Both the position numbers and the translations under genes were made by a program. Positions 4,935 to 63,654 of a DNA stretch of 64,000 nt are shown piece by piece. The notes beneath the pieces are model-generated. The model saw only the letters and a list, made by a program, of their open reading frames with translations. It made no database searches and was not told the origin of the DNA. The stretch covers positions 7,787 to 71,786 of the IMG/VR virus record IMGVR_UViG_3300044630_002233; one strand, written 5' to 3'. Each line of letters begins with the position of its first letter. Position 1 is the stretch's first letter. This stretch comes from a virus. Its lineage: Duplodnaviria > Heunggongvirae > Uroviricota > Caudoviricetes.

Positions 4935-4942
4935 TATTTATA
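4935..4942 (-). promoter_or_regulatory. T4-type late promoter motif TATAAATA
   Basis: Minus strand reads TATAAATA immediately after the upstream stop codon and about 65 nt before the ATG at 4868. Confidence 0.45.
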
Positions 4943-5509
4943 TTAACTAACGAAAGTCAATGTAGCTACGTCAGATACAACTTCTGCTGCGCCACCTGCT
5001 GATGTAACTTTAACACGATATTGATCGCCAGTATTGCCAACCAATTGTCCTGTCAATGCTAGTGAAGCAGATGTTGCGCCAGACACGTTTGTCCAACGAG
5101 TTGAGCCAACAGCTTTCTTCTGCCATTGATATGCTAGTGTACCACCACCAGAAGATACTGTTGCTGAAACGGAGAATGTTGCTCCACCAGATGAAGTATT
5201 TTGGTCAGCAGGTTGAGTACCGATAGTGATAGTGTATGTAGCGTCAGCTGCTTTAGTGTCATCAGCACGGTCGCCAGCGTTTGCTGCTGTTTCTGCCATT
5301 GCTACTAAGCATTCAGCTTTGTGACGTGTGTCACCAGCTGCGTCTACGAATGTGCTATACAACCACCAGCCTGCGCCAGTGATACCACGCTTCTTGTTTG
5401 TTTCTTGTTGTGCTTCAGTGATGTCTACAAAAATTGCCTTAGCAAGATCTGCAGTACCCAAGTACTTTGGACGATCAGCATCTGCGTCTGTTTTACCCCA
5501 TAGTGCCAT
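4943..5509 (-). CDS. Ig-like domain protein, probable capsid or tail decoration (188 aa)
   Basis: C-terminal TSSGGATFSVSATVSSGGGTLAYQWQKK...YRVKVTSAGG resembles a Big/Ig-like beta-sandwich. Confidence 0.45.
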   Translation of the reverse strand: MALWGKTDADADRPKYLGTADLAKAIFVDITEAQQETNKKRGITGAGWWLYSTFVDAAGDTRHKAECLVAMAETAANAGDRADDTKAADATYTITIGTQPADQNTSSGGATFSVSATVSSGGGTLAYQWQKKAVGSTRWTNVSGATSASLALTGQLVGNTGDQYRVKVTSAGGAAEVVSDVATLTFVS

Positions 5510-5524: not shown

Positions 5525-7903
5525 TTATTTGTTTGAGTTTGGTAGGTGTAATGGATAACCAGTATAATCTACGCCAGTGCGTTTCTTACCAGTAGCTGCA
5601 CCTTTTTGTCTTGCCCCAGAAGTCGAACCTGCTGGACGTCCACGACCACGCTTCTCACCAGTTGGTGCTGGTTTCTTTTTTGGTTTATCTTCATCGTCAT
5701 CATCGTCGTCGCCTTGATATGATGAACCGTAAGATCCTTTATGAACATAACGACCGTTTTTATCAGTCTCATATTCGTCTAGTTGTTCGACTGACTCATC
5801 AATTTCATCAATCTCTTCTTCTATTACTGGAAGATTTTGAATGATATCTTCTTTAAATTGTTTATACTTTTTCAAGTCTCTCTCCTCTTTTTGTGCTTTG
5901 TCAGCTTGTAGTTTAGCAGCGATTGCCATCTGACGACGCTTCTCTGCGCTCTTACCTGCAAACTGAGGAGCATCTGATTGTTTGAAATCTTTGATTACAA
6001 CACCCATATCTGCCTTGGCCATATCCATCTTTTCGTCTAACTCAACTTCTTCATTAGTTGGTTTAGGTAAGTGTGGTGTTACTTTGAATTTATGTAGTTT
6101 GCCATCGCCAAGTTCTTTGTGCGCTTGGATATGAACAGACTTACCATCATTCTTAACTACTTTACCTTGCATCTTATCGCCAGTCTTACTTGCGTAGAAG
6201 TCAACGTGTTGTCCACTAACTTTATGGATATCCATCTTAGCGTGGTCAGGATGCATAACACCTTGTGACGCATACTCACGACCATTGATGCGCATTTCGT
6301 TCATTTCATATTCTTCTTTTGAGAAAGTAGAACGAGAAGTGTTGTAGTCGTGAACCGCACTGGTACGCTTTTTGTTTATTGCCTTACCGAAATCGTCAGC
6401 CTCAGCAGAAGTTTTGAATGGCTTCTTATGAACTACAACATTACCGTATGCGTTCATTGCTTTTGAATGATATGTTCCTGTAGTATTATGTTTTACTACA
6501 CCAGCATGATGCCATGTTTGGCTGGCTTCATCAATAGCAACATCTTCTTTGGTTAAACGATCAACTGCTTTATTAACACCAGCCTTACGTTTCCATGAAT
6601 TTGCTTTGTATTTGTTCGCAAGTGTTGTTGATGCTTCTTTCGAACTAGGTTTTCTAGCCTTGTCTGCCATGTTCTCAAAATCAGCACCGATTTTACGTTG
6701 AATAGTAGCATCATGCGCAGCTTTTTTGATGTAAGAACCCAAAGTTGATTTTGACAATTCATCAATCTGATCAACTTCTTCTTTCATCTTTCCAGTAGGC
6801 ATACCATTGATTGGTTTCTTAGTGGCTTTATATGCTTTATGTTCTGGTGTTCCCTTAATATATTTTCTATCAAGAGTTGGAGCAACTGGAGCAGTTTCTT
6901 TCATAGAAGCAGTTTTACGTTGCGCCTTGTCGCTCATGTTAGTGACTTTGCCACGTGGATCTTTGTTCTGCGCCTTCTTCCAATCACCCTCATAACTCCA
7001 GCTTTTTACTTTACCTGATTTATCTTTTACAACAGTAGAAGTTTCTTCGTTATGAAGACCGACGTAGTTGTGGTCATGAACCTTATAACCACTCTTCTTG
7101 TAATATGCAAGAGCAGTGTTGATAGCAGTATCTTTATCTGGAGCAGTTACTTTTGCTCTGCGCATCTTTTTCTCATTACGCTGAGAAACCATAGTGTGAT
7201 TTGGATTTGAAATAGTAACAGAAACAACGTGCTTACCTTCACACATTGATTTCTTTTTCGCTTCTTTCATTTCCTTCTCGTCTTCATCTTCTTCGCCTTC
7301 ATCTTCATCTTCACATTCACACTCTGCTTCTGGCATACCGCAGTCTTCGCATTTTTCATCTTCATCTTCAGTTTCGTCTTCGTCTTCGTCTTCTTCGCCT
7401 TCGTCTTTATCTTCTTTTACTGGAACACAATTTGGAACTTTCTTACCGTTCTTCATTTTCATTCCAACGGCAGTATAACCTTTCCAGCATGCATCCTTTA
7501 GACCTTCTTCTTCTAAGTCAACTTCTTCTGACATAGTAGAATGTTTTACTTGTGTCTTTGGACCATCGTTGGCTGAATGAAAATGAACGTCCTCGCCTTT
7601 GCGACGAGCAGTCCAGTGACGTCCAGTTTCATCTTTGAATTTATGTTCTTGTTCGTCTTTTAATTTTGCGATTGCTTGATGATGTTCTGGGTGCAAAGGA
7701 ATAGAGAAGTCTTTACCGTGATGTACAGTCTTCATTGTACCCCAAGAATATTTCTTAGTAGTAACTGTAGCTTCAGTAATGTCTTCTTTCATAGCATTTT
7801 TGCTCTTGCGTAGCAAGTGAAAGTCATGTGCATCAACTTTGCCGTTTTTGTTTTTATCAATCTTATGTTGATTGCCCTTTAAGGCTTCTTTAAAAGATAA
7901 CAT
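5525..7903 (-). CDS. giant charged protein with a poly-acidic block, Cys cluster, EF-hand-like loop and C-terminal AT-hooks (792 aa)
   Basis: DKNKNGKVDAHD EF-hand-like loop. Long D/E runs flank CEDCGMPEAECECEDE. The protein is Lys-rich throughout, has a DDDDDDED block, and ends in an AT-hook KRGRGRPAGS...GKKRTG. The N-terminus MLSFKEALKG is like the T4 internal-protein targeting motif. Confidence 0.5.
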   Translation of the reverse strand: MLSFKEALKGNQHKIDKNKNGKVDAHDFHLLRKSKNAMKEDITEATVTTKKYSWGTMKTVHHGKDFSIPLHPEHHQAIAKLKDEQEHKFKDETGRHWTARRKGEDVHFHSANDGPKTQVKHSTMSEEVDLEEEGLKDACWKGYTAVGMKMKNGKKVPNCVPVKEDKDEGEEDEDEDETEDEDEKCEDCGMPEAECECEDEDEGEEDEDEKEMKEAKKKSMCEGKHVVSVTISNPNHTMVSQRNEKKMRRAKVTAPDKDTAINTALAYYKKSGYKVHDHNYVGLHNEETSTVVKDKSGKVKSWSYEGDWKKAQNKDPRGKVTNMSDKAQRKTASMKETAPVAPTLDRKYIKGTPEHKAYKATKKPINGMPTGKMKEEVDQIDELSKSTLGSYIKKAAHDATIQRKIGADFENMADKARKPSSKEASTTLANKYKANSWKRKAGVNKAVDRLTKEDVAIDEASQTWHHAGVVKHNTTGTYHSKAMNAYGNVVVHKKPFKTSAEADDFGKAINKKRTSAVHDYNTSRSTFSKEEYEMNEMRINGREYASQGVMHPDHAKMDIHKVSGQHVDFYASKTGDKMQGKVVKNDGKSVHIQAHKELGDGKLHKFKVTPHLPKPTNEEVELDEKMDMAKADMGVVIKDFKQSDAPQFAGKSAEKRRQMAIAAKLQADKAQKEERDLKKYKQFKEDIIQNLPVIEEEIDEIDESVEQLDEYETDKNGRYVHKGSYGSSYQGDDDDDDEDKPKKKPAPTGEKRGRGRPAGSTSGARQKGAATGKKRTGVDYTGYPLHLPNSNK

Positions 7904-8350
7904 TTATTGTTCTCCGCTAGATTTTAATGTTGATGTCAACATCCAGTTATGTTTTTTATGAGCATCGATTCTACCTGCTAGATAATCCAGCAACCCTTGT
8001 TCATTTGCTGCTTCAGCTAATCTGAATGCTTGCATTAGTGAAGATAAAACTGATTGGTTTACTTGAACCAAATCAGCAATCATACCTTGAGCACCAGTAG
8101 CTGATGTATCCATCACCGTTCTATATTTATCAAACTCAATAAGTGTATGTGGAGCAACAGCACCCAATGCACGAATCTCTTCAGCTGTTACATCAATGCT
8201 ACCATAAACCTCTTCGTATATTTTTCCAAAGAAGTCATGTAACATTGGAAACAAAATTCCTTCTACATTCCAGTGGTAGCCTTGCGCCTTTAGATACATC
8301 ATAAAAGAATCTGCCAACACCACTTTCATTTGTTCTTGTAGTTCATTCAT
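7904..8350 (-). CDS. dps: Dps/ferritin-like DNA-protection protein
   Basis: YHWNVEG ... LHDFFGKIYEE matches the Dps ferroxidase-centre signature (HWNxxG ... H/D-E); the size, 148 aa, is typical. Confidence 0.65.
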   Translation of the reverse strand: MNELQEQMKVVLADSFMMYLKAQGYHWNVEGILFPMLHDFFGKIYEEVYGSIDVTAEEIRALGAVAPHTLIEFDKYRTVMDTSATGAQGMIADLVQVNQSVLSSLMQAFRLAEAANEQGLLDYLAGRIDAHKKHNWMLTSTLKSSGEQ

Positions 8351-8351
8351 T

Positions 8352-8633
8352 TTAACAGTCCCATGCTTTTCTAGACCAGTAATTTGCGCTAGTCTTATCG
8401 GTTAAATTTCCCTGACCAGAAGATCTTGCACAATAAGATTTCTTGCGGTTAGGATTATTCTTCTTAATACTTAAAGTTTTATCCCCGAAGTTTACTTTTT
8501 GCGCTTTACCGTCGCCATCTGGATCAACATATACCTTCGACTTCTTAACATCACCAGCCATTGGTTTGTTAAGTGGTACAGTCTTACCTTGATAGGTAGC
8601 TTCGTTTAGTAGGAACTCTTTAAATGTTATCAT
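8352..8633 (-). CDS. hypothetical protein (93 aa) with a CTS-like N-terminus
   Basis: MITFKEFLLNE start; contains VYVDPDGDGKAQKVNFGD. Confidence 0.4.
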   Translation of the reverse strand: MITFKEFLLNEATYQGKTVPLNKPMAGDVKKSKVYVDPDGDGKAQKVNFGDKTLSIKKNNPNRKKSYCARSSGQGNLTDKTSANYWSRKAWDC

Positions 8634-11404
8634 TTTGTGTACTTACTATGAGATAGTCTTGCTTTTTCGATCTGACGAACACGTGGAGCCAATTTCATCG
8701 CAATTCTATTTAACACTGGTTTCATCTTAGCGATGCGTTGCTCTAGACGTTCTTTCTCAGCAACTGATAGAGAAGCCAATGGTTTCTTAGCAATACGTTG
8801 CTTGATTGCTTTAATAGCAAGTCTACGTGCACGAGTGTTAATTACAGATTGTGGAGAAGATCTCTTTAAAGCAACTTTCGCTTTTGCCATACGTTTAGAT
8901 TTAGATCTAGCGAAACGTGTCTTTGCTTTAATGCGTTCTAGTCTTGAAAGAACTTCATTCAACGCTTCTTCTTTTAGGCTGTCTTCTAGTTCTTCACCTG
9001 TTTCATCATCAACAATAGCCAACTCTTCATCATCATATCCGTCAAGAATATCTTCCCAATCGTTGTGTTGGTTAACAATGTCATCAATCTCTTTATCGCT
9101 TAAACTAAATTCTTCAACTTCTTCTGAGAAACGATCATTACCTACAGATCTTTTTTCTCCTGGACCATCAGATCCAATCTTAATTAAACGAGAAGGATGT
9201 TTCTTTCCATCTTTACCCATTTTCTCATCAGCTGCTACAACATATCCCTCTTCAACTTCTTCTTTGCGATACTTAGAATATTCTTTTTCTAAATCTAGTT
9301 TACGTTGCTTAACGTGCTCTTGATCCACATCTTTGTTCATTGACAATTGATGTAGTGTTTTACTTTTCTCTTTGTAATCACCGTGTGGGTCTTTTGCGTT
9401 TAAAGCTGTTTCGCTTAAATCAAATTCTTCTTTTACGTTATGCTTGATATTGAAACTGTTGTCTCTGCGAACAGTTCCAAGATGCTTAGCACCTAATTTG
9501 TTTAGAGAGTTGCGACCACTAGCATTCATTGTGTGGTTTACATCATAGCTACCAGATTTATGTTTGTAGATTTCAATACCATCATCTGGATCTCTATGAG
9601 TTTTAACTTTATCGCTCGCATACTTCATTGCAGATTTTAAATCTTTGAAGTTTTCTTTTATGTTTTCTTTTTCTTGCTCATGCTTTTTAGATAGTGTTTC
9701 TTTTTCTCTAGCATGTTTTGCAGCAAGAGCAGCCTTAGCAACTTCACGAGCAAGTTTCTTAGGATCTCCGTTGGCTTCGCCTAAAGAATAGCGAACTTTT
9801 TGTTTTCTTAGGTTATCGTTTTCTGGTTGATTGTGTAAGGTTTCACCAACCTTAGTCATGTTTCTTTCTAACCAATCTGGGATACCATCATTGTCTGTAT
9901 CCACTTCAGTCATTCTACCTTCAGTATCATAGCTGAGTAACTTATTATAGTATGCTTCTTTTAATTTTTGTGGCATTAAGTTTGTATCAAACTCAATACC
10001 GATATCAGTTGCCATCTTCAACATACGTCTTAGGATTTCATATGACTCAGCATTCAATGCTTTGTTCTTAATCTTACGCAATCCCATGTTAACAATCTGC
10101 TCTGGGTTTGTTGTAGCTTCAACATTATCAACACCAAGTGTAGTAGCAATAATTCTAGCTGCTTTAATTTGATCAGCAGAACTTGGTTTTAATGTTTTGT
10201 TTGTTAGGTTTTCAATTACAGTACCAGTTACTTTAACAGAATCATTCATCTCTTCTTTACCTGCTTCTTTATAGTCAGACGCAAGTTTTTCGATATGGTC
10301 GCCATGCGTTTTTAAATAGTTGTCATGGTGTTCTGCTTGACCCATCTTAGCAAGATGCTCTCTTGCTCTATCCATATGAACTTTGACATTGTTGACTACT
10401 TCGGGGGATGCTTGTCTTGTTGCAATCGCAGCCTTAAGATGTCCAAGGTATTCGTCAACTTCTTTCATTGCGTGTAGAATATCTACAGCACTTGCGTCGC
10501 CTGAGTGGATACTAGTGTTGAACGCATCAACAACTGAAGTATCTAAGTCGAAGTGTTTAGTTGTGTAGCCTTGCCAGCTAACTTGATTGTGATCTTCTGG
10601 ATTTTCAAAATCTTCTTGAAGATACACGTCTTTAATCCAACGAGTAAATTTCACGTCTGTTCCTTCTTCTGTTAATAGTAGATGATTTGAACCACGTTTA
10701 ACGACAACGCATTGTTTATTCTCACAAACAACAACGTCACCAACATTAAAGATCTCACCACGGAAATATTTTTCACGTAGGTCATCAACTGTTATATTTA
10801 ATGATTCTTTAACTGGCGCAAGGTCATACGCTTTGCGAATCTCATTCATCAATCTGCGTGCATCCAAGTCGGTAAGAGTTTTAGGAACACCCTTTTTAAA
10901 CTCAGAGAACTTTCCAGCCTTTGCTGCTTCACGCATCTTTGTACCTGACATACCTGTAGCGTTATCTGAATCTGGATCCCTTTCACCAGCAGAAACTACA
11001 GTAACGGTATCAAAGTTGAATTCAGTTCCGTTATACTTTTCTAAAATCTTTTTGTATTCTGCGATACGGTCGCTACCTGCAACCATAACAATATTCTTGT
11101 AACGCTTGTTTAATTCTTTGGCAGCTTCGATAAATGTTCTTACTTGTTCGTTGGCTGCTTTAAAATTAGCTCCAGGAAACATACGCTGGAGGTAATATAC
11201 TTTACGGGAAACTGGGAGTGGGTTTTGCTTCTTGTCTTCAGTCTTAGAAGCATAAATGACATGGTCTGCTCCCTGAGCAGACGCAACTTTTTGAACAGCT
11301 TTTACTAAGAGTTCGTGTCCTGTGGTTGGTGGCTGGAAGCGACCAAACGCAAATACAACCTTCTTGGAAGGCAACTCTTTAATTAGTTGTCTATATTTCT
11401 TCAT
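8630..11404 (-). CDS. NadM-type nucleotidyltransferase (NMNAT superfamily) fused to an ~750-aa charged C-terminal region
   Basis: N-terminal FGRFQPPTTGHELL (archaeal NMNAT GRFQPFHKGH motif) and MSGTKMRE (equivalent to ISST/SGTEIR). The C-terminal ~750 aa are Lys/Glu-rich and low-complexity. The N-terminus MKKYRQLIKELP is like the T4 internal-protein targeting motif. Confidence 0.6.
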   Translation of the reverse strand: MKKYRQLIKELPSKKVVFAFGRFQPPTTGHELLVKAVQKVASAQGADHVIYASKTEDKKQNPLPVSRKVYYLQRMFPGANFKAANEQVRTFIEAAKELNKRYKNIVMVAGSDRIAEYKKILEKYNGTEFNFDTVTVVSAGERDPDSDNATGMSGTKMREAAKAGKFSEFKKGVPKTLTDLDARRLMNEIRKAYDLAPVKESLNITVDDLREKYFRGEIFNVGDVVVCENKQCVVVKRGSNHLLLTEEGTDVKFTRWIKDVYLQEDFENPEDHNQVSWQGYTTKHFDLDTSVVDAFNTSIHSGDASAVDILHAMKEVDEYLGHLKAAIATRQASPEVVNNVKVHMDRAREHLAKMGQAEHHDNYLKTHGDHIEKLASDYKEAGKEEMNDSVKVTGTVIENLTNKTLKPSSADQIKAARIIATTLGVDNVEATTNPEQIVNMGLRKIKNKALNAESYEILRRMLKMATDIGIEFDTNLMPQKLKEAYYNKLLSYDTEGRMTEVDTDNDGIPDWLERNMTKVGETLHNQPENDNLRKQKVRYSLGEANGDPKKLAREVAKAALAAKHAREKETLSKKHEQEKENIKENFKDLKSAMKYASDKVKTHRDPDDGIEIYKHKSGSYDVNHTMNASGRNSLNKLGAKHLGTVRRDNSFNIKHNVKEEFDLSETALNAKDPHGDYKEKSKTLHQLSMNKDVDQEHVKQRKLDLEKEYSKYRKEEVEEGYVVAADEKMGKDGKKHPSRLIKIGSDGPGEKRSVGNDRFSEEVEEFSLSDKEIDDIVNQHNDWEDILDGYDDEELAIVDDETGEELEDSLKEEALNEVLSRLERIKAKTRFARSKSKRMAKAKVALKRSSPQSVINTRARRLAIKAIKQRIAKKPLASLSVAEKERLEQRIAKMKPVLNRIAMKLAPRVRQIEKARLSHSKYTK

Positions 11405-11456
11405 TTTTACCCATCTATAAAATATTACTTTATCTATTATTTAGTCAATCTAGACT

Positions 11457-12695
11457 TTAATATATCTCTCGCCATTGCATTCCAACACCAACAGTAGTAC
11501 TTTGAGTACCTAGATTTGTAGCTACTAGAACATAAATCTCTGAGTCTGTAGAATCATAGTTCTGAACAATATAGTTTTTCTTGGCTGATGAAGGTAGATC
11601 TGGTCCTGGAGCACCACCAGCTTTAAGAGCACCTTGCGTAGAAGCACCGACCCATCCTGCATCGATACAATCACCCTCAGTATATGCCGTAGCATCCACA
11701 CAATACTCAACTCCACTATCATCATCGACTGGAGTCCATGTTGTTTCGGTTAAATTAGATGTGTTAGGTAACTTAATCAATTTCCAACCGATATTCTCAC
11801 CACTACTAAAAACAGACAAATTACCCATACGAACAATCATTCTATTTTTATAGGTTCTAAAGGCATTCTTTAAACGAATCGCCATGATTGGTAGAGTCTG
11901 CCCAGAAGTAAGAGTTCTTGGAATGTTTGCTTGCGCCCAATCGGTTCCAGCTTCAACATACCCACCCTCTGACATAACAGTAGAACAGATTTGATCAAAG
12001 TAACCACCAGCAGTTGTTCCCACATTAACAAGTTCGCAACGGATAGGTAGGTTTGGATTACTCATATAAACTGTTGGCAAATTATTGCTGTTGTTAAATG
12101 CATGAGCGATTACGTATTGCCCATCATGAACAAAACCACAACGAACTCTACCAACACCAAGCCATTGAAAGTCAATCCAAAATAATTGCGTTTTGGTTAT
12201 ATCTAAATTGAAAGCACTAGATCCAGTACCATCACACTTATCTCCATTCCATTGAGACTGAGGTATTCTTCTTTCTGTTGGCGCACCAGTAACATAAGTT
12301 CTAACAACAATGTTTAGTGTACCATCACCTGTTTGTTCAAAATAGATACCATCATTATCATCAAAATACCCTGTTCGTTTAGTTACGTTTGGGACTGCAG
12401 TATAAAAGTTAAAACTAGAAAGGATAACCTGACTTTTTCCAGGCATGTAATGATGATAGAATTTGCTTTGATGAACAAGTCTTGAGTTTGGATTGTTTGA
12501 AGTTGTTAATCTTGCGCATGCTTGATTGGGTTGAAACGATAGTGTTGCACCATTAACAGCATAATCAATAAAGTTTGGATCTAAACCAAAGATGTGTTTA
12601 TAATCACCAAGCGTATATGGTTCACTGGTGCGTCCTCTTCCAAACGCATCAACATTTTGACTCTCCTGAAATAAATACGTCATACTATTCTCCAA
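11457..12695 (-). CDS. hypothetical protein (412 aa), possibly virion-associated beta-rich protein
   Basis: Long ORF with no recognisable catalytic motif. Confidence 0.4.
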   Translation of the reverse strand: MENSMTYLFQESQNVDAFGRGRTSEPYTLGDYKHIFGLDPNFIDYAVNGATLSFQPNQACARLTTSNNPNSRLVHQSKFYHHYMPGKSQVILSSFNFYTAVPNVTKRTGYFDDNDGIYFEQTGDGTLNIVVRTYVTGAPTERRIPQSQWNGDKCDGTGSSAFNLDITKTQLFWIDFQWLGVGRVRCGFVHDGQYVIAHAFNNSNNLPTVYMSNPNLPIRCELVNVGTTAGGYFDQICSTVMSEGGYVEAGTDWAQANIPRTLTSGQTLPIMAIRLKNAFRTYKNRMIVRMGNLSVFSSGENIGWKLIKLPNTSNLTETTWTPVDDDSGVEYCVDATAYTEGDCIDAGWVGASTQGALKAGGAPGPDLPSSAKKNYIVQNYDSTDSEIYVLVATNLGTQSTTVGVGMQWREIY

Positions 12696-13363
12696 CCATC
12701 TCTATAAATCATCTGTATACCACCGTTGTCTATTTTTAAGATAAATCCGTTTGGATCATTATCAACATTTCCGTGAACAATTATTGGAAATTTTGAACAT
12801 CTTCCAGATTCATCTTTGATTATAAGGTATCTACCATTCTTAACAATAGAAGGTAAAGTTAATGTTACTGTGCCAGCATAATTTACGCCAATATAATAAT
12901 CTTTTCTACCAACTGTATATGAAGGTGTTGTTACTAGCGTTGTTGGGTGATCTAGGTTTACTACGTCACCAGCGCCACCACCTGGACCAGCGTTTTGTAT
13001 TTTAGCGATCCACTGCTCAAGAAATTTTATTTTAGCATCAACAGTTTTAAATTGTTTTGTTAATGGATCTACTGGAGCTGCAATACCAGCTGGTGTGCTT
13101 AGATACTTATCAATATTTGGTATCTGTAGTTCTGGTGGTGTAACACCGACTGGAGTTGGTATTGGTGTTTCTTCTAGTAGAGTTGGATTTTCTTCTACAA
13201 GTTTTTCTTTATGTTTTTGTAGAGAAGCCAACTCCTCAAACAATACACTCAAATCAGATTGAATGTTTTCTTTTACTTCCTTGATAATCTTATGCTCTGG
13301 ACTTTTCTCTTTAGCCTCACGCATAAGACTGACTAAATCATTTAGACTGCTCATCGCTGCCAA
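12680..13363 (-). CDS. hypothetical protein (227 aa), N-terminal coiled coil plus C-terminal beta domain
   Basis: ORF overlaps its neighbours by a few nt on the same strand. Confidence 0.4.
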   Translation of the reverse strand: MAAMSSLNDLVSLMREAKEKSPEHKIIKEVKENIQSDLSVLFEELASLQKHKEKLVEENPTLLEETPIPTPVGVTPPELQIPNIDKYLSTPAGIAAPVDPLTKQFKTVDAKIKFLEQWIAKIQNAGPGGGAGDVVNLDHPTTLVTTPSYTVGRKDYYIGVNYAGTVTLTLPSIVKNGRYLIIKDESGRCSKFPIIVHGNVDNDPNGFILKIDNGGIQMIYRDGWRIV

Positions 13364-14580
13364 CCTTTGATAATTTCTGGCGAGAAGTTTGCCTTACTAA
13401 ACTCTAAGCGATCAACGATCTTTACTGCGCCACCACGCAAGTGGTCAATAGCAACAAACCCTTCTACGCCAGTCGTCTTGAATCCATTAGCAGTCTTTAA
13501 GAAAGTCTTCATAGATCCAGCTTTATTCATCTTGGCGATAATCAATTTCTTGGCTTCAGTCAAAACATTAGCCAACTCAAATACGCTCTCGATAGACTTC
13601 CTGTCATTGTTTGCAAAGAAAGCCATTACAGCTTTGCGCTTTTCGTTGACACCAGCCTTACCTTTTTCTGTCTTCAACTTATCCATGTCTTTCTGATATT
13701 TCCCATGGATATAATCAAACAACTCATCAACGTGTTTCTTTGGATTAGAGATAGTTTCTCCAGCACGCACCTTGGAGTTATTGAAAGTCTTGACCAATGT
13801 AAGCAACTCGGTATTGTTAGAAATGCTGTTTAGAGTATTAGCATTAATAGACTTGAACAACACACCTGCTTTTGATAGTAGGGAAGTTACTTCAGTAGTT
13901 TCTGATTCCGTAAAGGTAGCAGTTCCAGAAACATCTTTGTAGTTGGCGTCATCCATCCAGATTGAACCAACCTTGTTAAATTTGTCAACAATACCTTTAC
14001 CGAAAGTAGCCTTCATTGTTTCAAACGAACTACCTTCATATGTAGTATGCCAAACAACACCAATCTTAGCAGCACGTAGTTTAGTGGCAAGAGGACTATC
14101 ATATGGAACAGCGTATACAATAGTGTTAGGATGGAAGGTTACATACTTCTTACCATCAATCGTTTCTGTTTTCAAATCGTTAGTGAACATCAAGTCGCCT
14201 TGATAAACACCAGACTTGATGCCCAACTTCTTAAACTCTGCCAATGCAACTTTCAGTTTAGCTGCCAAGTCGCCTTCAGTATCCGCATCGATTTCTTTTG
14301 GTGTCTTATAAACCTTTGGCTCTTTATTGAAGACACCTTTCTTTGCTACAAAGAATTTGCCATCACGTGGATCAATACCAGCAAATACAGCTGGCGCACC
14401 GTCCCACTTAACAGTAGTAGTAATTTTTGACTTGCTATTACCAGCCAACATATCACGCAAGTCTTGTAGGAAGTTAATTGCTTTACGTGTACCCAGAACA
14501 CCTTCGTTGAAGATTAAATCCTCAACGTGTTCCATATGGGTATTCTTTTCTTCTCTAATATACTCTTTTAAGTTTAACAT
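13351..14580 (-). CDS. rnlA: RNA ligase 1 (T4 RnlA-like) nucleotidyltransferase
   Basis: Motif I TVKWDGAP (KxDG), and motifs IV/V EGFVAIDHLRGGAVKIVD aligning with T4 RnlA EGYVAVMKDGSHFKIK. CTS-like start MLNLKEYIREE. Confidence 0.55.
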   Translation of the reverse strand: MLNLKEYIREEKNTHMEHVEDLIFNEGVLGTRKAINFLQDLRDMLAGNSKSKITTTVKWDGAPAVFAGIDPRDGKFFVAKKGVFNKEPKVYKTPKEIDADTEGDLAAKLKVALAEFKKLGIKSGVYQGDLMFTNDLKTETIDGKKYVTFHPNTIVYAVPYDSPLATKLRAAKIGVVWHTTYEGSSFETMKATFGKGIVDKFNKVGSIWMDDANYKDVSGTATFTESETTEVTSLLSKAGVLFKSINANTLNSISNNTELLTLVKTFNNSKVRAGETISNPKKHVDELFDYIHGKYQKDMDKLKTEKGKAGVNEKRKAVMAFFANNDRKSIESVFELANVLTEAKKLIIAKMNKAGSMKTFLKTANGFKTTGVEGFVAIDHLRGGAVKIVDRLEFSKANFSPEIIKGWQR

Positions 14581-15194
14581 TATTTCACCAACTTTATTTG
14601 TCCATCAGGTAAAGCGAAGTAGGCATTAAACCTAATCATCGGAAACTCTCTACCTAATTTTAGGAATTCTTTTAGGTTGCTCATGCTGTCATCAAACAGA
14701 GCAACTCTTGAAAATTGTTTAGTCTTTAAATACTCACGAATAATAATCGCCTTCTTAACAGCAGGGATATTATTGTCTTCCATATTACCAGCACGTTCAA
14801 CACGAACCTTGTCAATATCGAAACCATGCTTACGGAAGGTTGCTAGAAATTTGTCACGATTATCAAAGTTCGCTCTAGCAGTAACAATGATAACTTTGTT
14901 CAAAGGGTTTCTGTCTGTAGCGGAAACCAACTTGCTTGCTGTATTTAGCATCTTAGCGATTGGCTTCGATTCTTTATAAAACTTGGCAGCATCTTTGAAT
15001 TCAGAAAAATCGAAGGACTCACCAGCCCCAAGTTTGTAATTATTAAACTCTTGGTTGGTCAGCTTCTTTAGGACTGCGCCATCTTTTTTAACAGCGATCT
15101 GGGCAGTGGTATGGAAGAGGGTGTCGTCAATATCGAATATGGATAGACGACCCAGCGTTTCTTCTTCTTTTAGTAGATATTCTTTAAACCTCAT
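14580..15194 (-). CDS. HAD-family phosphatase (polynucleotide 3'-phosphatase-like)
   Basis: HAD motif I FDIDDTLFH, motif II IIVTAR, and motif IV ALFDDS. No P-loop kinase domain is present. Confidence 0.55.
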   Translation of the reverse strand: MRFKEYLLKEEETLGRLSIFDIDDTLFHTTAQIAVKKDGAVLKKLTNQEFNNYKLGAGESFDFSEFKDAAKFYKESKPIAKMLNTASKLVSATDRNPLNKVIIVTARANFDNRDKFLATFRKHGFDIDKVRVERAGNMEDNNIPAVKKAIIIREYLKTKQFSRVALFDDSMSNLKEFLKLGREFPMIRFNAYFALPDGQIKLVK

Positions 15195-18940: not shown

Positions 18941-20254
18941 TTATCCTAAAAAGTCTGCGAGAGAACCAGCACTTGCCTTTGGATGATAAGTGTGAAGCAT
19001 ATGTTCTCCACCTTTCTCACGCAAGAAGTCATACCATTCTTCCTCTTCCCACATTCCTGGAGAAACACCATTCCACAATTTCTTATACAAGCGATGCTCA
19101 GTATTCAAGCGACGTTGTTCAACGTATTCAAAACGAAAATCTTCATATTCTTTGCTACCAAGTTCTAGCATTTTTTCACGGAAGTATACAACCAAACTTA
19201 CACGCTCTGAACCTTCTTCACAAACAATAGGTGTATTGCCATGGATGATTTCGTGGTTATTAACCAACAACAAATCACCTGGACGCACGTTAACAGCCAT
19301 ACGGATCTCAGGGAAAATCAAATACCCACCTGAGTAACGACCATCGTTAGATAATGTCAACAGATTTGAGAGACCAGAATCCAAATCACCAGCATCACGA
19401 TGAGCAGCAGTGCGGAATGTTTTGTTTACAGTAACTGTTGTAAATGGTGTTTCTGGGATAAGGAATCTAGAATCAATTTTCTTAGCTGCTGCCATTTGAT
19501 TGCCATATCTCCAAGGCAACAACTCAGCAAAACCTTTAGCCAAGTGCTGTAAGAATGGGTATGCCATTTTAAACTTATCAAAGTTGTCTCTTGTATAAGT
19601 TGTAGCACGACCATAAGGGATACGTGGGTAGCGATCAAACCAACCAGCGATACCAGAATCAACTGGATTGCCATAAGATGTTTCGCTAATCATCTTCATG
19701 GTTTCTTCACATGACTTAGCACGTTCTTCTGGCGTCATAGTTTTGATGGAATCAACCCACTCATCAAAATTAAATTTACCACGGAAACGTGAGATAACCC
19801 AAACATTGTTTTTGCCAGAGCCAAGTGCCTTTAAACGTGACTCTGCTGTTGGATATTTTGAGCGAACATTTTCAATTGGGTCACCAGAAAATAGAGATGC
19901 CTTGCGACCATCAAGAAGCGCATTAATCATTTCTTCCTGATAGTTAGTAACCCACTCACGTCCTTCACCATTAACTTGTGTTCCAGCTTTAATACCTGAA
20001 GCCAAGCCACGATTCTCTGTTCGTTGAGCAGCTTCTCTTAGTCCATGATATGCTGCGTCTTGTTCTTCTTTAGTAAAGAAGTTCTTACGGAATTTGAAAG
20101 CGATCTTCTGTTCGTTTGGCGCTTCACCATAACCAACTGGCAAATAGCAATCAGTATCTTCCTCGATTAGAATATCATAATTTGATTCATCAAGAAACAT
20201 ACCCATAAGATTTTCACAATCATGTTTAGTTTCTGCTACAATAACTCGTGTCAT
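18941..20254 (-). CDS. 2OG-Fe(II) dioxygenase, TET/JBP-like (nucleobase hydroxylase candidate)
   Basis: AAHRDAGDL...LSNLLTL is comparable to TET2 AHAHRDLHNM...STLVCTL. The distal His is in HEIIHGNTP, followed by RVSLVVYF (the RxS 2-oxoglutarate contact). It sits next to a glucosyltransferase-like gene. Confidence 0.4.
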   Translation of the reverse strand: MTRVIVAETKHDCENLMGMFLDESNYDILIEEDTDCYLPVGYGEAPNEQKIAFKFRKNFFTKEEQDAAYHGLREAAQRTENRGLASGIKAGTQVNGEGREWVTNYQEEMINALLDGRKASLFSGDPIENVRSKYPTAESRLKALGSGKNNVWVISRFRGKFNFDEWVDSIKTMTPEERAKSCEETMKMISETSYGNPVDSGIAGWFDRYPRIPYGRATTYTRDNFDKFKMAYPFLQHLAKGFAELLPWRYGNQMAAAKKIDSRFLIPETPFTTVTVNKTFRTAAHRDAGDLDSGLSNLLTLSNDGRYSGGYLIFPEIRMAVNVRPGDLLLVNNHEIIHGNTPIVCEEGSERVSLVVYFREKMLELGSKEYEDFRFEYVEQRRLNTEHRLYKKLWNGVSPGMWEEEEWYDFLREKGGEHMLHTYHPKASAGSLADFLG

Positions 20255-28025: not shown

Positions 28026-28033
28026 TATTTATA
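28026..28033 (-). promoter_or_regulatory. T4-type late promoter motif TATAAATA upstream of the long hsp20 leader
   Basis: Minus strand reads TATAAATA, about 190 nt upstream of the hsp20 ATG. Confidence 0.35.
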
Positions 28034-33942: not shown

Positions 33943-33971
33943 ATTATACCTGAACATTGATTAAATGTCAA
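33943..33971 (-). promoter_or_regulatory. Early sigma70-like promoter (TTGACA-N17-TATAAT)
   Basis: Minus strand reads TTGACATTTAATCAATGTTCAGGTATAAT; the -35 overlaps the cobS stop codon. Confidence 0.6.
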
Positions 33972-37790: not shown

Positions 37791-37796
37791 AATATA

Positions 37797-37825
37797 ATTA
37801 TACCTCAGGTGTGAATTAATGTCAA
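37797..37825 (-). promoter_or_regulatory. Early sigma70-like promoter (TTGACA-N17-TATAAT), perfect consensus
   Basis: Minus strand reads TTGACATTAATTCACACCTGAGGTATAAT, followed 6 nt later by ATGATG. Confidence 0.6.
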
Positions 37826-37974
37826 GCGAAAGCCAAGTCGTGCTCATAGCGTGTCAAGATACGCTCGACTTCAACACGATTCATCAATGCACCCTTCTCA
37901 ACTTGCAAGATGTAATCAAGGCAGTAGTCATACGCCAAACAGATAAGTTCTTTGTCAGTAAATCCAGCCCACAT
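37822..37974 (-). CDS. hypothetical small protein (50 aa)
   Basis: Hand translation gives MWAGFTDKELICLAYDYCLDYILQVEKGALMNRVEVERILTRYEHDLAFA, with a GGAG RBS. Below the track cutoff. Confidence 0.35.
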   Translation of the reverse strand: MWAGFTDKELICLAYDYCLDYILQVEKGALMNRVEVERILTRYEHDLAFA

Positions 37975-45068: not shown

Positions 45069-45076
45069 TATTTATA
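45069..45076 (-). promoter_or_regulatory. T4-type late promoter TATAAATA
   Basis: Minus strand reads TATAAATA 28 nt upstream of the gp3-like ATG. Confidence 0.5.
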
Positions 45077-46496: not shown

Positions 46497-47504
46497 TTAT
46501 TTCTTGATACTGTTAAATGCAGTTAGATAAGCACTGATAGATGGGTCAACGACCTTCTCTTCTTTTAGCTCTTCTACTGCGCTGTCTGTTACAACAGACT
46601 TAACTTCTGAAGTTGCCTTCTTAGTAAAGTAGTTTTCACGTATTGTCTGAAGTTTTGTCTTAAATGATTCAGCATCATCATAAGCCAATTCTTCTGCTAA
46701 AGACTTAAACTTCTCTACTTCTGTGTCAGCCATGTCTTTAACATAAGCATCAATTGTTGCCTGACGAGCAGACTCATTGATTGACTTTGTCAACTCAACA
46801 TTCTTAGCGACAGTTTCGTCAAGTTTGGATTCAAGAGACTGAAGTTTTTCTTCCATGTCTGCCAATACATCGAAACGCTCTTCAGGAATTTCAATGTAAG
46901 ACTCTTGGAAAGCAACTTTAATCTTCTCGATAAAGTCTTCCATAATTTCAGACTTAATACCAGATTCAAGGGCAAGTTCATTATCTGCAATCCACTGCTC
47001 AACCATATAGTTGAGATATCCATCAACCTTTTCAACAAGACCCTCTTTGAAGCTCTCAACTTGCTCAGCAAGTTTTGCATCAAACTCTTCTTCGAGTTTA
47101 GCGACTTCTTGCTTAACTCGAGTAACTACTGCTGCTTCAAAAATTGTTGCAGCTTTAGTTTTAAATTCTTCTGAAAGACCTTCACCGTTAACAAGAGCAG
47201 CTACATCTTCGCTGACATCAACTGTGATTTCTCTTTCTTTCTTCTCGTCAACGATTTCTTCTTCAACGATCTCTTCTTCTACTAGAGTTTCATCTTCGAT
47301 TGTTTCGTCTTCTTCTTTTACTGCTTTAAGATTTGATGATTCTGGAGCTGAAGCATTGCTCTTAACATCACCTTTCTTAGTTGTTGGTGCTGTTGGCTCG
47401 CGAACATCATTTCTCTTATTGTCTGGATTTTGTTCTTCGCCCAACGATGCCTGCAGCTTTTGTGATTCAGCTAGCATCTCGGCAATTTTCTTTTCAATTG
47501 ACAT
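46497..47504 (-). CDS. 22: prohead scaffold protein (gp22)
   Basis: Highly acidic coiled-coil protein (EEEIVEEEIVDE) between the protease and capsid genes. Confidence 0.75.
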   Translation of the reverse strand: MSIEKKIAEMLAESQKLQASLGEEQNPDNKRNDVREPTAPTTKKGDVKSNASAPESSNLKAVKEEDETIEDETLVEEEIVEEEIVDEKKEREITVDVSEDVAALVNGEGLSEEFKTKAATIFEAAVVTRVKQEVAKLEEEFDAKLAEQVESFKEGLVEKVDGYLNYMVEQWIADNELALESGIKSEIMEDFIEKIKVAFQESYIEIPEERFDVLADMEEKLQSLESKLDETVAKNVELTKSINESARQATIDAYVKDMADTEVEKFKSLAEELAYDDAESFKTKLQTIRENYFTKKATSEVKSVVTDSAVEELKEEKVVDPSISAYLTAFNSIKK

Positions 47505-47541: not shown

Positions 47542-47549
47542 TATTTATA
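47542..47549 (-). promoter_or_regulatory. T4-type late promoter TATAAATA upstream of the scaffold gene
   Basis: Minus strand reads TATAAATA in the 47-nt gap between the protease and scaffold genes. Confidence 0.45.
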
Positions 47550-47551
47550 AA

Positions 47552-48205
47552 TTATTTGATTTTACTCAAAAAATTCTGGAAAGCACGGATCTTGGCTTCC
47601 GTTAAATTCTTCGATGATGTCTTACGTATTACACGCTTAACTTCATCTATATGTTTCTCCACAAATTTCCCATCAACGAAAACCCACTCCTTACCTTCCA
47701 TAATGCCACGAACGAAAGCATCTGGTGCTGAAGGGTCGGCAACGATATCTGCTGCGGTTGACAACATGAAATCGTCTTGAACAATTTGTACACCGTCTTT
47801 GTTTTCTTTAAGTGAACCCATTGCTCTTGAAGAAACACCTAGATTTGCGCCACCGTCTAAAAGACCTCTAGCGATCATACCGTTTGGTGTTTCTAAAATC
47901 TTTGCTCTACCAACGTAGTTACTACCTTCCTTGCGCAATGATGTAATCATATGCGAAACAAGATGAAGGTTAATGCCTGGACCGTCTGGATGTCCCAGTT
48001 CGCCAAAGGCACGATTATTCTGCACTGTTTCTTCCATGTAACGAGCAACTTCTTTATCCATAATTTCAGATGGATACATGCGACCGTTACGGTTTTTAAT
48101 ATCAGCTTGCAAGAAGATACCTTCAATAAAGTAGTCTTTTTTCTTTCCTACTTTTTCTTCTACAACAAACTTAATGTCTTGTACTTCTTCTCTAATGAGT
48201 TTCAT
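47552..48205 (-). CDS. 21: prohead protease (gp21)
   Basis: GELGHPDGPG motif, size 217 aa, and position match T4 gp21. Confidence 0.8.
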   Translation of the reverse strand: MKLIREEVQDIKFVVEEKVGKKKDYFIEGIFLQADIKNRNGRMYPSEIMDKEVARYMEETVQNNRAFGELGHPDGPGINLHLVSHMITSLRKEGSNYVGRAKILETPNGMIARGLLDGGANLGVSSRAMGSLKENKDGVQIVQDDFMLSTAADIVADPSAPDAFVRGIMEGKEWVFVDGKFVEKHIDEVKRVIRKTSSKNLTEAKIRAFQNFLSKIK

Positions 48206-63646: not shown

Positions 63647-63654
63647 TATTTATA
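63647..63654 (-). promoter_or_regulatory. T4-type late promoter TATAAATA
   Basis: Minus strand reads TATAAATA between the terminator at 63.68 kb and the gene start at 63622. Confidence 0.5.

Follow-up and report, generated by a model that had tools for sequence, protein, structure and literature searches.

On balance, we read the protein encoded at 8630..11404 (minus strand, ATG start, 924 aa) as a head-packaged, probably injected member of its family that joins a leader like the T4 capsid targeting sequence (CTS) to an NMNAT-like enzyme; it lies in the 64,000-nt stretch of DNA analysed here (the window), which is from an uncultured marine T4-like phage. At its N-terminus the 924-aa protein has ten residues that look like the signal by which T4 loads proteins into its head, so the virion probably carries it. 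Like the T4 CTS, the leader would bring the protein to the scaffolding core of the prohead and would then probably be cleaved off by the prohead protease after I-K-E10. The acidic-then-basic end of the tail would suit a place among the packaged DNA; the whole protein would be housed in the head, from which it would probably exit with the DNA at infection. The ATP-using enzyme domain would adenylylate a small phosphorylated substrate, conversion of NMN to NAD+ being the leading candidate. For this protein we infer packaging, cleavage, injection and substrate; the detection of homologues in virions comes from the literature. The features are as follows.

11369..11404, minus strand: leader helix, aa 1-12 (MKKYRQLIKELP), T4 CTS-like, with a possible prohead-protease site I-K-E/L after aa 10
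10805..11368, minus strand: HIGH-signature (Rossmann-like) nucleotidyltransferase domain, aa 13-200, from its motif set
10619..10792, minus strand: small beta-barrel (SH3-like), aa 205-262, AF2 strands, accompanying the enzyme domain
10280..10591, minus strand: four-helix domain A, aa 272-375, AF2 pLDDT 75-93
9959..10192, minus strand: helical domain B, aa 405-482, containing KPSSADQIKAARIIATTLGVDNVE, AF2 pLDDT 80-86
9770..9922, minus strand: short segment, aa 495-545, with a DTDNDGIPDW loop (calcium-binding-like DxDxDG), weak Pfam match
9110..9763, minus strand: aa 548-765, long helix 548-597 and then a variable, mostly disordered charged stretch that holds RKEEVEEG
8960..9109, minus strand: acidic segment, aa 766-815, net charge -23, from composition
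8633..8959, minus strand: basic helical C-terminal module, aa 816-924, net charge +28, including RARRLAIKAIKQRIAKK, from composition and AF2
8352..8633, minus strand: downstream 93-aa basic DUF6321-like protein, leader MITFKEFLLNE/A, weak DUF6321 match
13351..14580, minus strand: DUF6267 protein, 409 aa, leader MLNLKEYIREE, Rnl1-like ligase motifs, PF19782 E 1e-108

The ORF and the motifs quoted in the original prediction are all real: GRFQPPTTGH at aa 21-30, SGTKMRE at aa 153-159, RKEEVEEG at aa 713-720 and RARRLAIKAIKQRIAKK at aa 858-874. Because homologues with 97%, 63% and 44% identity cover 100% of the query, the long C-terminus is not the artefact of a missed frameshift. The extension is shorter than the ~750 aa first proposed: the conserved N-terminal unit includes the small beta-barrel at aa 205-262 and so ends at about aa 262, which leaves about 660 aa.

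The enzyme domain has the Rossmann-like alpha/beta fold of the class I aaRS/adenylyltransferase type, predicted by AF2 with a pLDDT of 82, and contains the motifs FGRFQPPTTGH (20-30), S53..D57-K-K-x-NPL63, GSDR (110-113), YNG (124-126), SAGERDPD (138-145) and GMSGTKMR (151-158). Both nucleotide-binding motifs (T27-T-G-H30 and S153-G-T-K-M-R158) are intact, and G29, H30, S153, K156 and R158 are invariant among close relatives. PF01467 (CTP_transf_like) scored 20.2 bits, with a gathering cut-off of 21 that several homologues pass at 22–29 bits. By fold and motifs the domain is thus a nucleotidyltransferase of the HIGH-signature class, as had been proposed. AF2 places the strands of the adjoining beta-barrel at 224-227, 230-237, 241-246 and 252-256. 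Of 141 representative clusters, 119 have the barrel, as do the homologues from cyanophages, HTVC008M and Melnitz.

The more specific assignment, to the NadM-type NMNATs, stands only in part. NMNATs are the closest structural neighbours, aligned over 148–151 residues, whereas GCT aligned over only about 107; but curated NMNAT thresholds were missed by TIGR01526 (NadR NMNAT domain; 22.6 versus 341.15 bits) and by NF002243/PRK01153 (NadM; 14.1 versus 127), both of which match aa 15-78 only, and the protein falls in a separate, annotated phage family. The NadM/NadR signature consists of GRFQPxHxGH and SGTxIR, ATP-binding motifs that leave the second substrate unspecified. GRFQPPTTGH fits the former save for Thr in place of the first His, and SGTKMR fits the latter. 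For the invariant GSDR, YNG and SAGERDPD no NMNAT counterpart was established. The enzyme domain looks catalytically intact and is most like NadM-type NMN adenylyltransferases, and NAD synthesis is a plausible candidate role, already published as speculation; a virion-delivered NMNAT has likewise been proposed speculatively for cyanophages (PMC9602691, PMC10665884).

As the original prediction had stated, there is no Nudix box: Pfam, NCBIfam and PHROGs detected no Nudix domain, nor did Foldseek when given the modelled aa 261-924 (best E 1.4). RKEEVEEG was rightly set aside as a candidate, because it sits in a poorly conserved helix and lacks an upstream Gx5Ex7. A nadV or NAMPT-like gene, raised earlier as a possible companion, was not present among the window ORFs scanned. 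As far as the window shows, which covers part of the genome, the protein does not match a phage NadM-Nudix bifunctional NMNAT (NatV/NARP2-type), which would have a C-terminal Nudix domain and a partner NadV/Nampt gene.

On profile matches, aa 13-262 are assigned to the phage ‘cyt(it)idyltransferase’ family, PHROG 3041/395 (E 2.7e-67 over aa 9-268 and 1.3e-55 over aa 14-268). A homologue is found in 564 phage records, mostly cyanomyoviruses, plus Melnitz and HTVC008M, and the family, present in essentially all cyanomyoviruses, comprises 4150 clusters at 50% identity. In a very large clade known from metagenomes, as in the isolates HTVC008M and Melnitz, the enzyme is normally fused to a long tail. 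The window order (UvsX, helicase, TET, intervening genes, HAD, DUF6267, two genes, cytidyltransferase gene) recurs in HTVC008M, Melnitz, S-CAM9, S-SZBM1 and contig L008. All signature residues are kept in 91 of the 141 representative 50%-identity clusters; in the other 50 (~35%) the ATP-binding motifs are degenerate, with G29 of xGH and/or the SxxKxR loop lost, and the syntenic orthologue P0177 has GSF..TSMH and SGLRMC. This loss argues against NAD synthesis as the conserved role of the family.

The 10-aa CTS of T4 IPIII sends proteins to the scaffolding core and is removed by gp21 (PMC9958956, PMC10229621). T4 IPII and IPIII both begin MKTYQEFIAE, as we checked in their sequences, and against this decapeptide MKKYRQLIKE ranks first among the 77 window genes, with a score of 22. 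The background, 421 internal-Met 10-mers, gave a mean of -7 (sd 6.5) and a maximum of 15. The CTS-like N-terminus noted earlier is therefore borne out, and the resemblance is real and beyond chance; a regex-based P value for the leader was derived post hoc. Against a targeting role, the leader may be no more than a common amphipathic helix at the N-terminus, or may stem from an AT-rich context around the start codon. T4 gp21 cleaves after (L/I)xE, which I8-K9-E10 fits; against the likeness, Q6 occupies the position of E6 in the T4 CTS. M1, K2, Q6, L11, P12 and K14 show conservation of 90% or more, and the leader helix persists across the family, even in orthologues with degenerate catalytic motifs. 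AF2 predicts a helix at 2-10 with a pLDDT of 63, below that of the core. Also counting against the packaged reading, the T4-late-promoter TATAAATA was absent from the 52-nt spacer upstream of the gene.

Similar leaders begin unrelated neighbours in the window, namely the 93-aa protein, whose score of 18 is the second best in the window, the DUF6267 protein and the HAD-like protein. On an independent 166.7-kb contig three non-homologous neighbours start MLSFK(T/E)(F/Y)L.EE, and the orthologue starts MKNFKQLIKEL. Head-assembly genes of the T4 type lie in the window as well: scaffold (PHROG 237, 46497..47504), head maturation protease (PHROG 207, 47552..48205), major capsid protein (PHROG 138) and portal (PHROG 213). 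Virion-protein genes flank the locus (PHROG 1645 at 11457..12695; PHROG 613 at 4943..5509).

Published virion proteomes contain several homologues. S-SZBM1_140 was detected in virions (PMC9146016), as were S-SCSM1 ORF91 and a S-CBWM1 ‘NMNAT’ (PMC9602691) and S-CREM2 ORF154 (PMC10665884). S-SZBM1_140 aligns to aa 14-260 (E 4e-31) and starts MRFRQFIIEA. The 792-aa neighbour in the window has a module in common with S-SZBM1_139, itself detected in virions. S-SZBM1_141, the DUF6267 protein, lacks the leader, and a text search of PMC9146016 does not find it. Together, the leader and these proteomes make virion packaging plausible; the further proposal, that the protein may be injected to sustain NAD pools, overstated the NAD role, given the ~35% of clusters without the motifs.

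Several alternatives have to be weighed against a head-packaged enzyme. The protein might instead be a cytoplasmic auxiliary metabolic enzyme that converts NMN to NAD+ (or NaMN to NaAD) during infection and is no genuine virion component, its N-terminal helix being part of the fold and its tail a regulatory or localisation appendage. The nearest structures and the weak HMM matches are indeed NMNATs, both catalytic motifs are intact, and the replication genes (helicase, UvsX, primase, polymerase) adjoin; moreover, the cyanophage proteome authors caution that virion preparations may carry over abundant soluble proteins (PMC9602691, PMC10665884). We nevertheless consider this unlikely: unrelated neighbouring proteins in two genomes carry the same leader, homologues were found in at least four independent virion preparations, a third of clusters retain the leader without the motifs, and the scanned window ORFs offer no NadV.

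The neighbouring genes suggest another possibility, that the domain is a non-pyridine nucleotidyltransferase acting with DUF6267, a putative Rnl1-like ligase, and a HAD/Pnkp-like phosphatase in end-healing and sealing or in modification, for example by an adenylylation that activates a 5' end or a cofactor. The DUF6267 gene lies directly upstream of the cytidyltransferase gene throughout cyanomyoviruses, and a single profile, PHROG 455, joins the two proteins, which suggests fused versions; none was retrieved, however. The DUF6267 motifs KxDG, FKxKG, PxNxIV..Y, EG(F/Y)VA and xKxx are collinear with those of T4 Rnl1, a DxDxT motif occurs in the adjacent 204-aa protein, which also matches the PHROG ‘polynucleotide kinase’ family, and a TET/JBP dioxygenase gene is close by. 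The ligase call comes from motifs only: hhalign against T4 Rnl1 gave a probability of 1.9%, and neither the Pfam nor the PDB HMM search turned up a ligase. We know of no repair pathway in which a HIGH-type transferase is used in this way, and regard such a role as unlikely.

In the models the lineage-specific C-terminal extension consists of a series of small helical domains joined by variable, disordered linkers; its end is acidic and then basic. The proposed Lys/Glu-rich remainder with a basic end was thus right as to charge (K, R, D and E make up 34% of the whole protein and 35% of aa 271-924) and as to the basic end, but not as a uniform region, since it is modular, with two confident helical domains and linkers. 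A domain search found neither Nudix nor any other known domain in it, and the aa 261-924 model had no Foldseek match (best E 1.4, as above). Domain A was found by BLAST in 36 of 141 clusters and has no fold match in the PDB. Domain B, the part of the extension most conserved among close relatives, is covered in 120/120 close homologues and present in 70 of the 141 clusters, with no match in Pfam, PHROG or PDB. The sole match of the DTDNDGIPDW segment, which has low AF2 confidence and occurs in 8/141 clusters, is to the Pfam Binary_toxB Ca-binding domain, and is weak (E 0.059). The region aa 548-765 is found in only 0–6 of 141 clusters; its helix 548-597 has a pLDDT of 74–84, aa 630-675 and 716-764 fall below 50, and PHROG 26930 matches aa 658-718. 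The acidic segment is kept in 50/141 clusters and ~115/120 close homologues. The basic module, with AF2 helices at 852-916 (pLDDT 82–90), is present in 83/141 clusters, matches PHROG 23027 (E 1.3e-5) and has many invariant R, K and E columns.

A mainly structural role for the family, as a head-core, internal or DNA-associated protein, with catalysis of no importance and the nucleotidyltransferase fold a vestige that in some members can still bind nucleotide, would account for the clusters that have lost G29 and/or the SxxKxR loop (35%, P0177 among them) while the leader and the basic C-terminal module remain conserved. We think it highly improbable, because the 924-aa protein, like 91/141 clusters, keeps all signature residues, and further polar residues are invariant (D57, K59, N61, D112, R113, E141, R142, D143 and D145), the pattern expected of an active site under selection. 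A CTP:glycerol-3-phosphate cytidylyltransferase (TagD-like) or other cell-envelope cytidylyltransferase, the class implied by legacy annotation and one that the original prediction named as contrary to it, is barely credible, as the GCT/CCT signature RTxGISTT is absent from the enzyme domain, GMSGTKMR is of the adenylyltransferase type (SxTxxR), the GCT alignment is the shorter one (~107 versus 148–151 residues for NMNATs), and the genomic context holds no envelope-synthesis genes.

A head-packaged enzyme would have wider implications. Few uncharacterised genes of marine T4-like phages are as widespread as this family, which has been variously annotated as a cell-wall enzyme, as an NMNAT or not at all; its many motif-degenerate orthologues imply that catalysis is not the whole story. 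If the leader is a capsid targeting signal, T4 cargo loading would extend to ocean phages that infect SAR11, methylophiles and cyanobacteria, a ten-residue motif would predict the injected proteome from sequence alone, and there would be a handle for putting foreign proteins in these capsids. If the enzyme makes NAD+, the phages would inject with it a countermeasure to NAD-depleting defences; otherwise a common annotation calls for correction. More speculatively, and we think this distinctly unlikely, the CTS-like leader might mark a block of unrelated neighbouring proteins (Rnl1-like DUF6267, Pnkp-like HAD, DUF6321 and the NMNAT-like enzyme) that marine pelagiphage-type T4-like viruses load and inject as a ‘first-minute’ kit, which heals and seals nuclease-cut RNA or DNA and regenerates NAD+ before phage expression. 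NAD+ might then be the AMP donor of the DUF6267 ligase, and anticodon-nuclease and NAD-depleting abortive-infection defences would be blunted.

Among known systems, the NadM-type NMNATs, which include the phage KVP40 NatV type, are only 15–17% identical to the phage protein (M. jannaschii 1F9A; Francisella NadM-Nudix 2QJT). Unlike them it has Thr for the first His of HxGH, as in PPAT, and no Nudix domain, and its family adds the invariant GSDR, YNG and SAGERDPD, an extra N-terminal helix and the C-terminal beta-barrel. The cyanomyovirus proteins (S-SZBM1_140, S-SCSM1 ORF91, S-CREM2 ORF154, S-CAM9 gp097) are homologous over the enzyme and beta-barrel (30–40% identity, ~250–280 aa) and sit in the UvsX/gp41 region, likewise downstream of DUF6267. 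They are, however, only about 360–375 aa long and have neither module A nor module B, nor the acidic/basic tail; instead, a separate large hypothetical protein comes next (S-CAM9 gp096, 716 aa; the virion-detected S-SZBM1_139).

The closest cultured relatives, HTVC008M gp130 (596 aa; Pelagibacter phage) and Melnitz gene 18 (650 aa; Methylophilales phage), are 39–41% identical over aa 1-270, lie at the same locus, begin MKTLKELLRK and MKKFSEIIEA, respectively, and are also long-tailed, but their tails are made of other modules. That of Melnitz holds the module of the window's 792-aa neighbour and, at its C-terminus, a DUF6321-like unit (aa 554-630, 46% identical to the separate 93-aa protein of the window, 5e-13), which suggests that modules have moved between genes of this block. 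T4 IPII/IPIII and Alt share a similar leader of ~10 residues, like MKTYQEFIAE, ending (I/L)xE, and the T4-like setting of a T4-type scaffold and prohead protease, both encoded in the window. They are alike in concept too, as diverse, fast-evolving cargo loaded in the head and injected (PMC9958956), and Alt is a packaged T4 enzyme that uses NAD+ (T4 annotation; PMC9958956). Past the leader there is no sequence homology to them, and the putative cargo described here is far larger than the IPs.

The window is DNA of a marine, uncultured myovirus of the T4-like type. Its genes all lie on a single coding strand, the G+C content is ~38%, and it carries T4-type replication genes (polymerase, clamp loader, UvsX, helicase, primase) and virion genes (major capsid protein, scaffold, prohead protease, portal, sheath, tube), plus terminase. 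The nearest cultured relatives at the locus studied here are Methylophilales phage Melnitz, Pelagibacter phage HTVC008M and cyanomyoviruses, all Kyanoviridae. The 924-aa protein is read from an ATG start (ORF 8630–11404, minus strand), and the motifs quoted in the original prediction are present: GRFQPPTTGH (aa 21–30), SGTKMRE (aa 153–159), RKEEVEEG (aa 713–720) and RARRLAIKAIKQRIAKK (aa 858–874). A search of 5.8 billion proteins recovered 2794 relatives, the best of which cover 100% of the query (924 aa, 97% identity; 944 aa, 63%; 946 aa, 44%) and reside on viral contigs of up to ~165 kb. Full-length homologues of 903–956 aa align over the whole query at 44–97% identity, and the C-terminal 165 aa are kept in ~115 of 120 homologues, which rules out the frameshift artefact that had been feared for the long extension. 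Coverage across these 120 homologues reveals conserved blocks at aa 1–260, 280–380, 400–480 and 760–924, with a variable middle; the whole length of the frame is therefore under selection.

Residues 9–268 match PHROG 3041 (E 2.7e-67) and PHROG 395 (E 1.3e-55), both labelled ‘cytidyltransferase’. By tblastn the enzyme domain occurs in 564 phage records, mostly of Synechococcus and Prochlorococcus myoviruses, where it is annotated ‘cytitidyltransferase’, and further in jumbo phages of enterobacteria, Pseudomonas, Ralstonia and Erwinia; an exhaustive HMMER search over 1.84 billion cluster representatives yielded 4150 clusters (E up to 1e-3) whose proteins span 200–1341 aa. This is thus a phage family of very large size that had been annotated before, and long tails are frequent in it; the orthologues of the cultured relatives HTVC008M and Melnitz are long-tailed as well. 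The legacy label, implying a TagD-type cytidylyltransferase, finds no support, since the protein has no RTxGISTT signature.

An AlphaFold2 model of aa 1–270 (pLDDT 82) has an N-terminal helix (aa 2–10), then a Rossmann-like nucleotide-binding domain, and a small beta-barrel of four to five strands (aa 224–256); Foldseek with this model placed NadD and PPAT on top (E ~1e-6). Family-invariant residues comprise F20-G-R-F..P-P-T..G-H30, S53, D57, K59, N61-P-L63, K68, G110-S-D-R113, Y124-N-G126, S138-A-G-E-R-D-P-D145 and S153..K156..R158, among which the GSDR, YNG and SAGERDPD motifs appear to be family-specific. The GRFxP..GH, NP(L/F) and SGTxxR motifs recall, in our reading, NadM and NadR, and a Thr stands where the HxGH-type motif has its first His, as in PPAT. 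Membership of the nucleotidyltransferase superfamily is certain, and superfamily and family assignment taken together are virtually so. The original prediction of a NadM-type NMN adenylyltransferase (NMNAT) holds insofar as these enzymes are the nearest characterized relatives, by a small margin only; the protein itself lies outside the NadM and NadR families. General libraries match it marginally: Pfam PF01467 at 20.2 bits (cut-off 21), and in NCBIfam the NadR NMNAT domain, the top match, at 22.6 bits (cut-off 341) and NadM PRK01153 at 14.1 bits (cut-off 127). A profile link to a solved enzyme was likewise rejected: a 16-sequence family profile searched against PDB sequences gave matches reaching only E 0.002–0.3, the best being MJ0951, a TmcAL-like protein (0.002), with NadR next (0.046). 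No NadV- or Nudix-like gene that might partner an NMNAT route was seen among the ORFs scanned in the window, which is part of the genome, so the suggested check for nadV elsewhere came back empty within that scope.

We then aligned the domain across 141 representatives of 50%-identity clusters. Both nucleotide-binding motifs are kept in 91 of them, as in the 924-aa protein; in the other 50 (about 35%) the Gly of xGH has become A, S, I, E, M, L, N or D, and/or the SxxKxR loop is degenerate, being either deleted or found with C, K or F in place of its Arg. Judged by these residues, the degenerate members (within representatives P0157–P0259) are probable pseudoenzymes. One of them, P0177 (837 aa; GSF..TSMH and SGLRMC), is encoded on the related contig L008, an independent contig of 166.7 kb, in the order UvsX, helicase, TET, glycosyltransferase, further genes, DUF6267, DUF6321, a 204-aa gene, a 292-aa gene, P0177, ferritin and a 756-aa gene. 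This is exactly the locus of the 924-aa protein; P0177 must accordingly be an orthologue and not an additional paralogue. At least one degenerate member thus sits at the orthologous locus (L008 10001–12514), and catalysis alone cannot be the conserved role of the family.

No function for the extension was found in Pfam, NCBIfam or PHROGs; its two PHROG matches, 26930 (aa 658–718) and 23027 (aa 811–919), carry no functional label, and a DTDNDGIPDW segment is a weak Ca-loop match. The earlier statement that a Nudix domain is missing was borne out: neither Nudix nor any other known domain emerged in aa 261–924 from Pfam, NCBIfam or PHROGs, and an AlphaFold2 model of this region, made with a 91-sequence alignment, had no fold match in the PDB (Foldseek, best E 1.4).

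Features of the AlphaFold2 model of aa 261–924 (feature; residues; pLDDT)
Four-helix domain; aa 272–375; 75–93
Helical domain; aa 409–480; 80–86
Long helix; aa 548–597; 74–84
Helices; aa 677–718; about 83
C-terminal helices; aa 852–916; 82–90
Disordered linkers; aa 378–403, 630–675 and 716–764; below 50

Net charge is −23 over aa 761–815 and +28 over aa 816–924. By BLAST against the 141 representatives, the beta-barrel is present in 119, the basic tail in 83, helical domain B (aa 405–482) in 70, the acidic segment in 50, helical domain A (aa 272–375) in 36 and the middle segments in 0–8. Long relatives carry only DUF5824 or nothing. Relatives in which the enzyme domain is internal mostly lack a Pfam domain; their fusion partners were inconsistent in theme (one Pol-beta-type NTase, one PAP2 domain) and were discarded as a clue to function. 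The Melnitz orthologue (650 aa) differs in that its C-terminus is a unit that in the window is a separate 93-aa gene (46% identity, 5e-13), and it also has a module that in the window belongs to the 792-aa neighbour. Residues 94–159 of that neighbour are homologous both to S-SZBM1_139, a virion-detected cyanophage protein, and to a portion of the tail of the Melnitz cytidyltransferase, so the genes of the block exchange modules, and modules move between adjoining genes.

Virion proteins are encoded on either side of the gene, one of PHROG 1645 (11457–12695) and a head protein of PHROG 613 (4943–5509), the latter homologous to S-SZBM1_136, a ‘virion structural protein’. Other genes of the region are as follows.

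5525–7903, minus strand: 792-aa protein, highly charged, start MLSFKEALKGN, with a poly-acidic Cys-containing stretch …DEDEKCEDCGMPEAECECEDEDEGEEDEDE…
7904–8350, minus strand: Dps/ferritin-like gene (PF00210, E 2.5e-19), downstream of the gene for the 924-aa protein
13351–14580, minus strand: DUF6267 protein, 409 aa, conserved beside the cytidyltransferase in marine T4-like phages
14580–15194, minus strand: 204-aa protein abutting DUF6267, CTS-like start MRFKEYLLKEE
18941–20254, minus strand: 437-aa protein with a TET/JBP 2OG-Fe(II) dioxygenase domain (PF12851, E 2e-23), beside the replicative helicase
33968–35143, minus strand: CobS-like AAA ATPase (PHROG 249, ‘porphyrin biosynthesis’)
35544–37847, minus strand: 767-aa PHROG 459 ‘peptidase’, adjoining the CobS-like gene

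Only the 93-aa gene (8352–8633) separates the gene from the Dps/ferritin-like one, and the ferritin adjacency is kept in L008; possible roles for this protein are DNA protection, iron handling or that of a packaged DNA-binding protein. In L008 a GT1 glycosyltransferase follows the TET/JBP gene, a combination suggesting that phages of this clade have DNA hypermodification of the 5-methylcytosine type, oxidized or glycosylated. The last pair is conserved: in cyanophage S-SZBM1, too, a cobalt chelatase subunit is followed by a peptidase.

In T4, a 10-residue capsid targeting sequence (CTS) steers proteins into the scaffolding core, and the prohead protease gp21 cleaves it off (PMC9958956, PMC10229621). 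T4 IPII and IPIII both start MKTYQEFIAE|A. An earlier regex count had found CTS-like starts in 5 of 77 genes (P about 1e-9), with a pattern drawn after seeing the data; we therefore scored residues 2–10 of each window gene against the T4 CTS, an a-priori pattern. The 924-aa protein tops the 77 genes with a score of 22, against a maximum of 15 for 421 internal-Met 10-mers (mean −7, sd 6.5), in keeping with the CTS-like N-terminus originally proposed; the 93-aa neighbour (MITFKEFLLNE|A) ranks second at 18 and DUF6267 (MLNLKEYIREE) fourth at 14. In the 924-aa protein, I8-K9-E10 fits the gp21 (L/I)xE rule. Blocks of adjoining, mutually non-homologous genes at 5525–15194 (minus strand) and at L008 6980–12514 have in common a ten-residue leader resembling the T4 CTS. 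In L008, three adjoining non-homologous proteins of the block share nearly identical first ten residues (MLSFK.[FY]L.EE): DUF6267 (MLSFKTFLKEE), DUF6321 (MLSFKEYLEED) and a 204-aa protein (MLSFKTFLEEE). The orthologue there starts MKNFKQLIKEL, and the remaining L008 genes score <=8. The leader is conserved family-wide (representative P0257, MKTYKQFLKEA; Melnitz, MKKFSEIIEA; S-SZBM1, MRFRQFIIEA) and is retained by members with dead catalytic motifs. One leader on unrelated proteins is how a targeting signal would look.

The T4 late promoter box TATAAATA is absent from the 52-nt spacer upstream of the gene. The window has five exact copies of it, a number not above chance expectation, and several lie just upstream of structural genes, e.g. 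the scaffold gene.

4935–4942, minus strand: exact TATAAATA box
28026–28033, minus strand: exact TATAAATA box
45069–45076, minus strand: exact TATAAATA box
47542–47549, minus strand: exact TATAAATA box
63647–63654, minus strand: exact TATAAATA box

Homologues have been found in virions. S-SZBM1_140 (‘cytidylyltransferase’, 362 aa), which aligns to aa 14–260 (E 4e-31), was identified by LC-MS in purified virions, as was the product of the downstream gene, S-SZBM1_139 (PMC9146016). S-SCSM1 ORF91 and a S-CBWM1 ‘NMNAT’ (PMC9602691), and S-CREM2 ORF154 (PMC10665884), were likewise detected. In S-SZBM1 the DUF6267 protein, S-SZBM1_141, does not have the leader, and searching the text of the S-SZBM1 paper (PMC9146016) found no mention of this protein. 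A virion-delivered NMNAT is already in print, as speculation; we found no biochemical test of it in the literature searched, and no papers under the literal terms ‘cytitidyltransferase’ or ‘DUF6267’.

Taken together, the observation behind the original prediction is confirmed and its interpretation partly supported. Packaging of the 924-aa protein in the virion is fairly likely. On balance we favour, with some reserve, a modular protein, packaged in the head and probably injected, that belongs to a known phage family and has an intact NMNAT-like enzyme domain; NMNAT activity itself is a tentative assignment that we are inclined to doubt. Three points are new relative to the literature searched: unrelated enzymes encoded as a block share the CTS-like leader, orthologues often have degenerate catalytic motifs, and the protein may have a ligase as partner.

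That candidate partner is DUF6267, encoded upstream (PF19782, E 1e-108). In cyanomyoviruses it immediately adjoins the cytidyltransferase, and PHROG 455 covers both. Its invariant motifs are collinear with motifs I, Ia, IIIa, IV and V of T4 RNA ligase 1 (Rnl1), from which it differs by a ~160-aa insertion between IIIa and IV.

Collinear motifs (motif; DUF6267; T4 Rnl1)
I; VKWDGA; TKEDGS
Ia; FVAKKGV; FKSKGS
IIIa; PNTIVYAV; PTNRIVLAY
IV; EGFVAI; EGYVAV
V; VKIV; FKIK

Neither phmmer nor hmmsearch had a hit in the PDB, and no ligase family appeared among Pfam matches with E up to 10. The homologues that a database search recovered were all near-identical and ~414 aa long, with no fusion among them. 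With hhalign, the probability was below 2% against both T4 Rnl1 and T4 DNA ligase, and the alignment to Rnl1 fell exactly on motifs IV–V. Judged by its motifs, DUF6267 may be an unrecognized Rnl1-like ligase; profile methods gave no significant match. To our knowledge, these phages have no T4-type DNA ligase gene. The abutting 204-aa protein carries the DxDxT motif of HAD phosphatases at its N-terminus (SIFDIDDTLF) and matches PHROG 415, ‘polynucleotide kinase’; together with DUF6267 it recalls the healing-and-sealing pair of T4, Pnkp and Rnl1.
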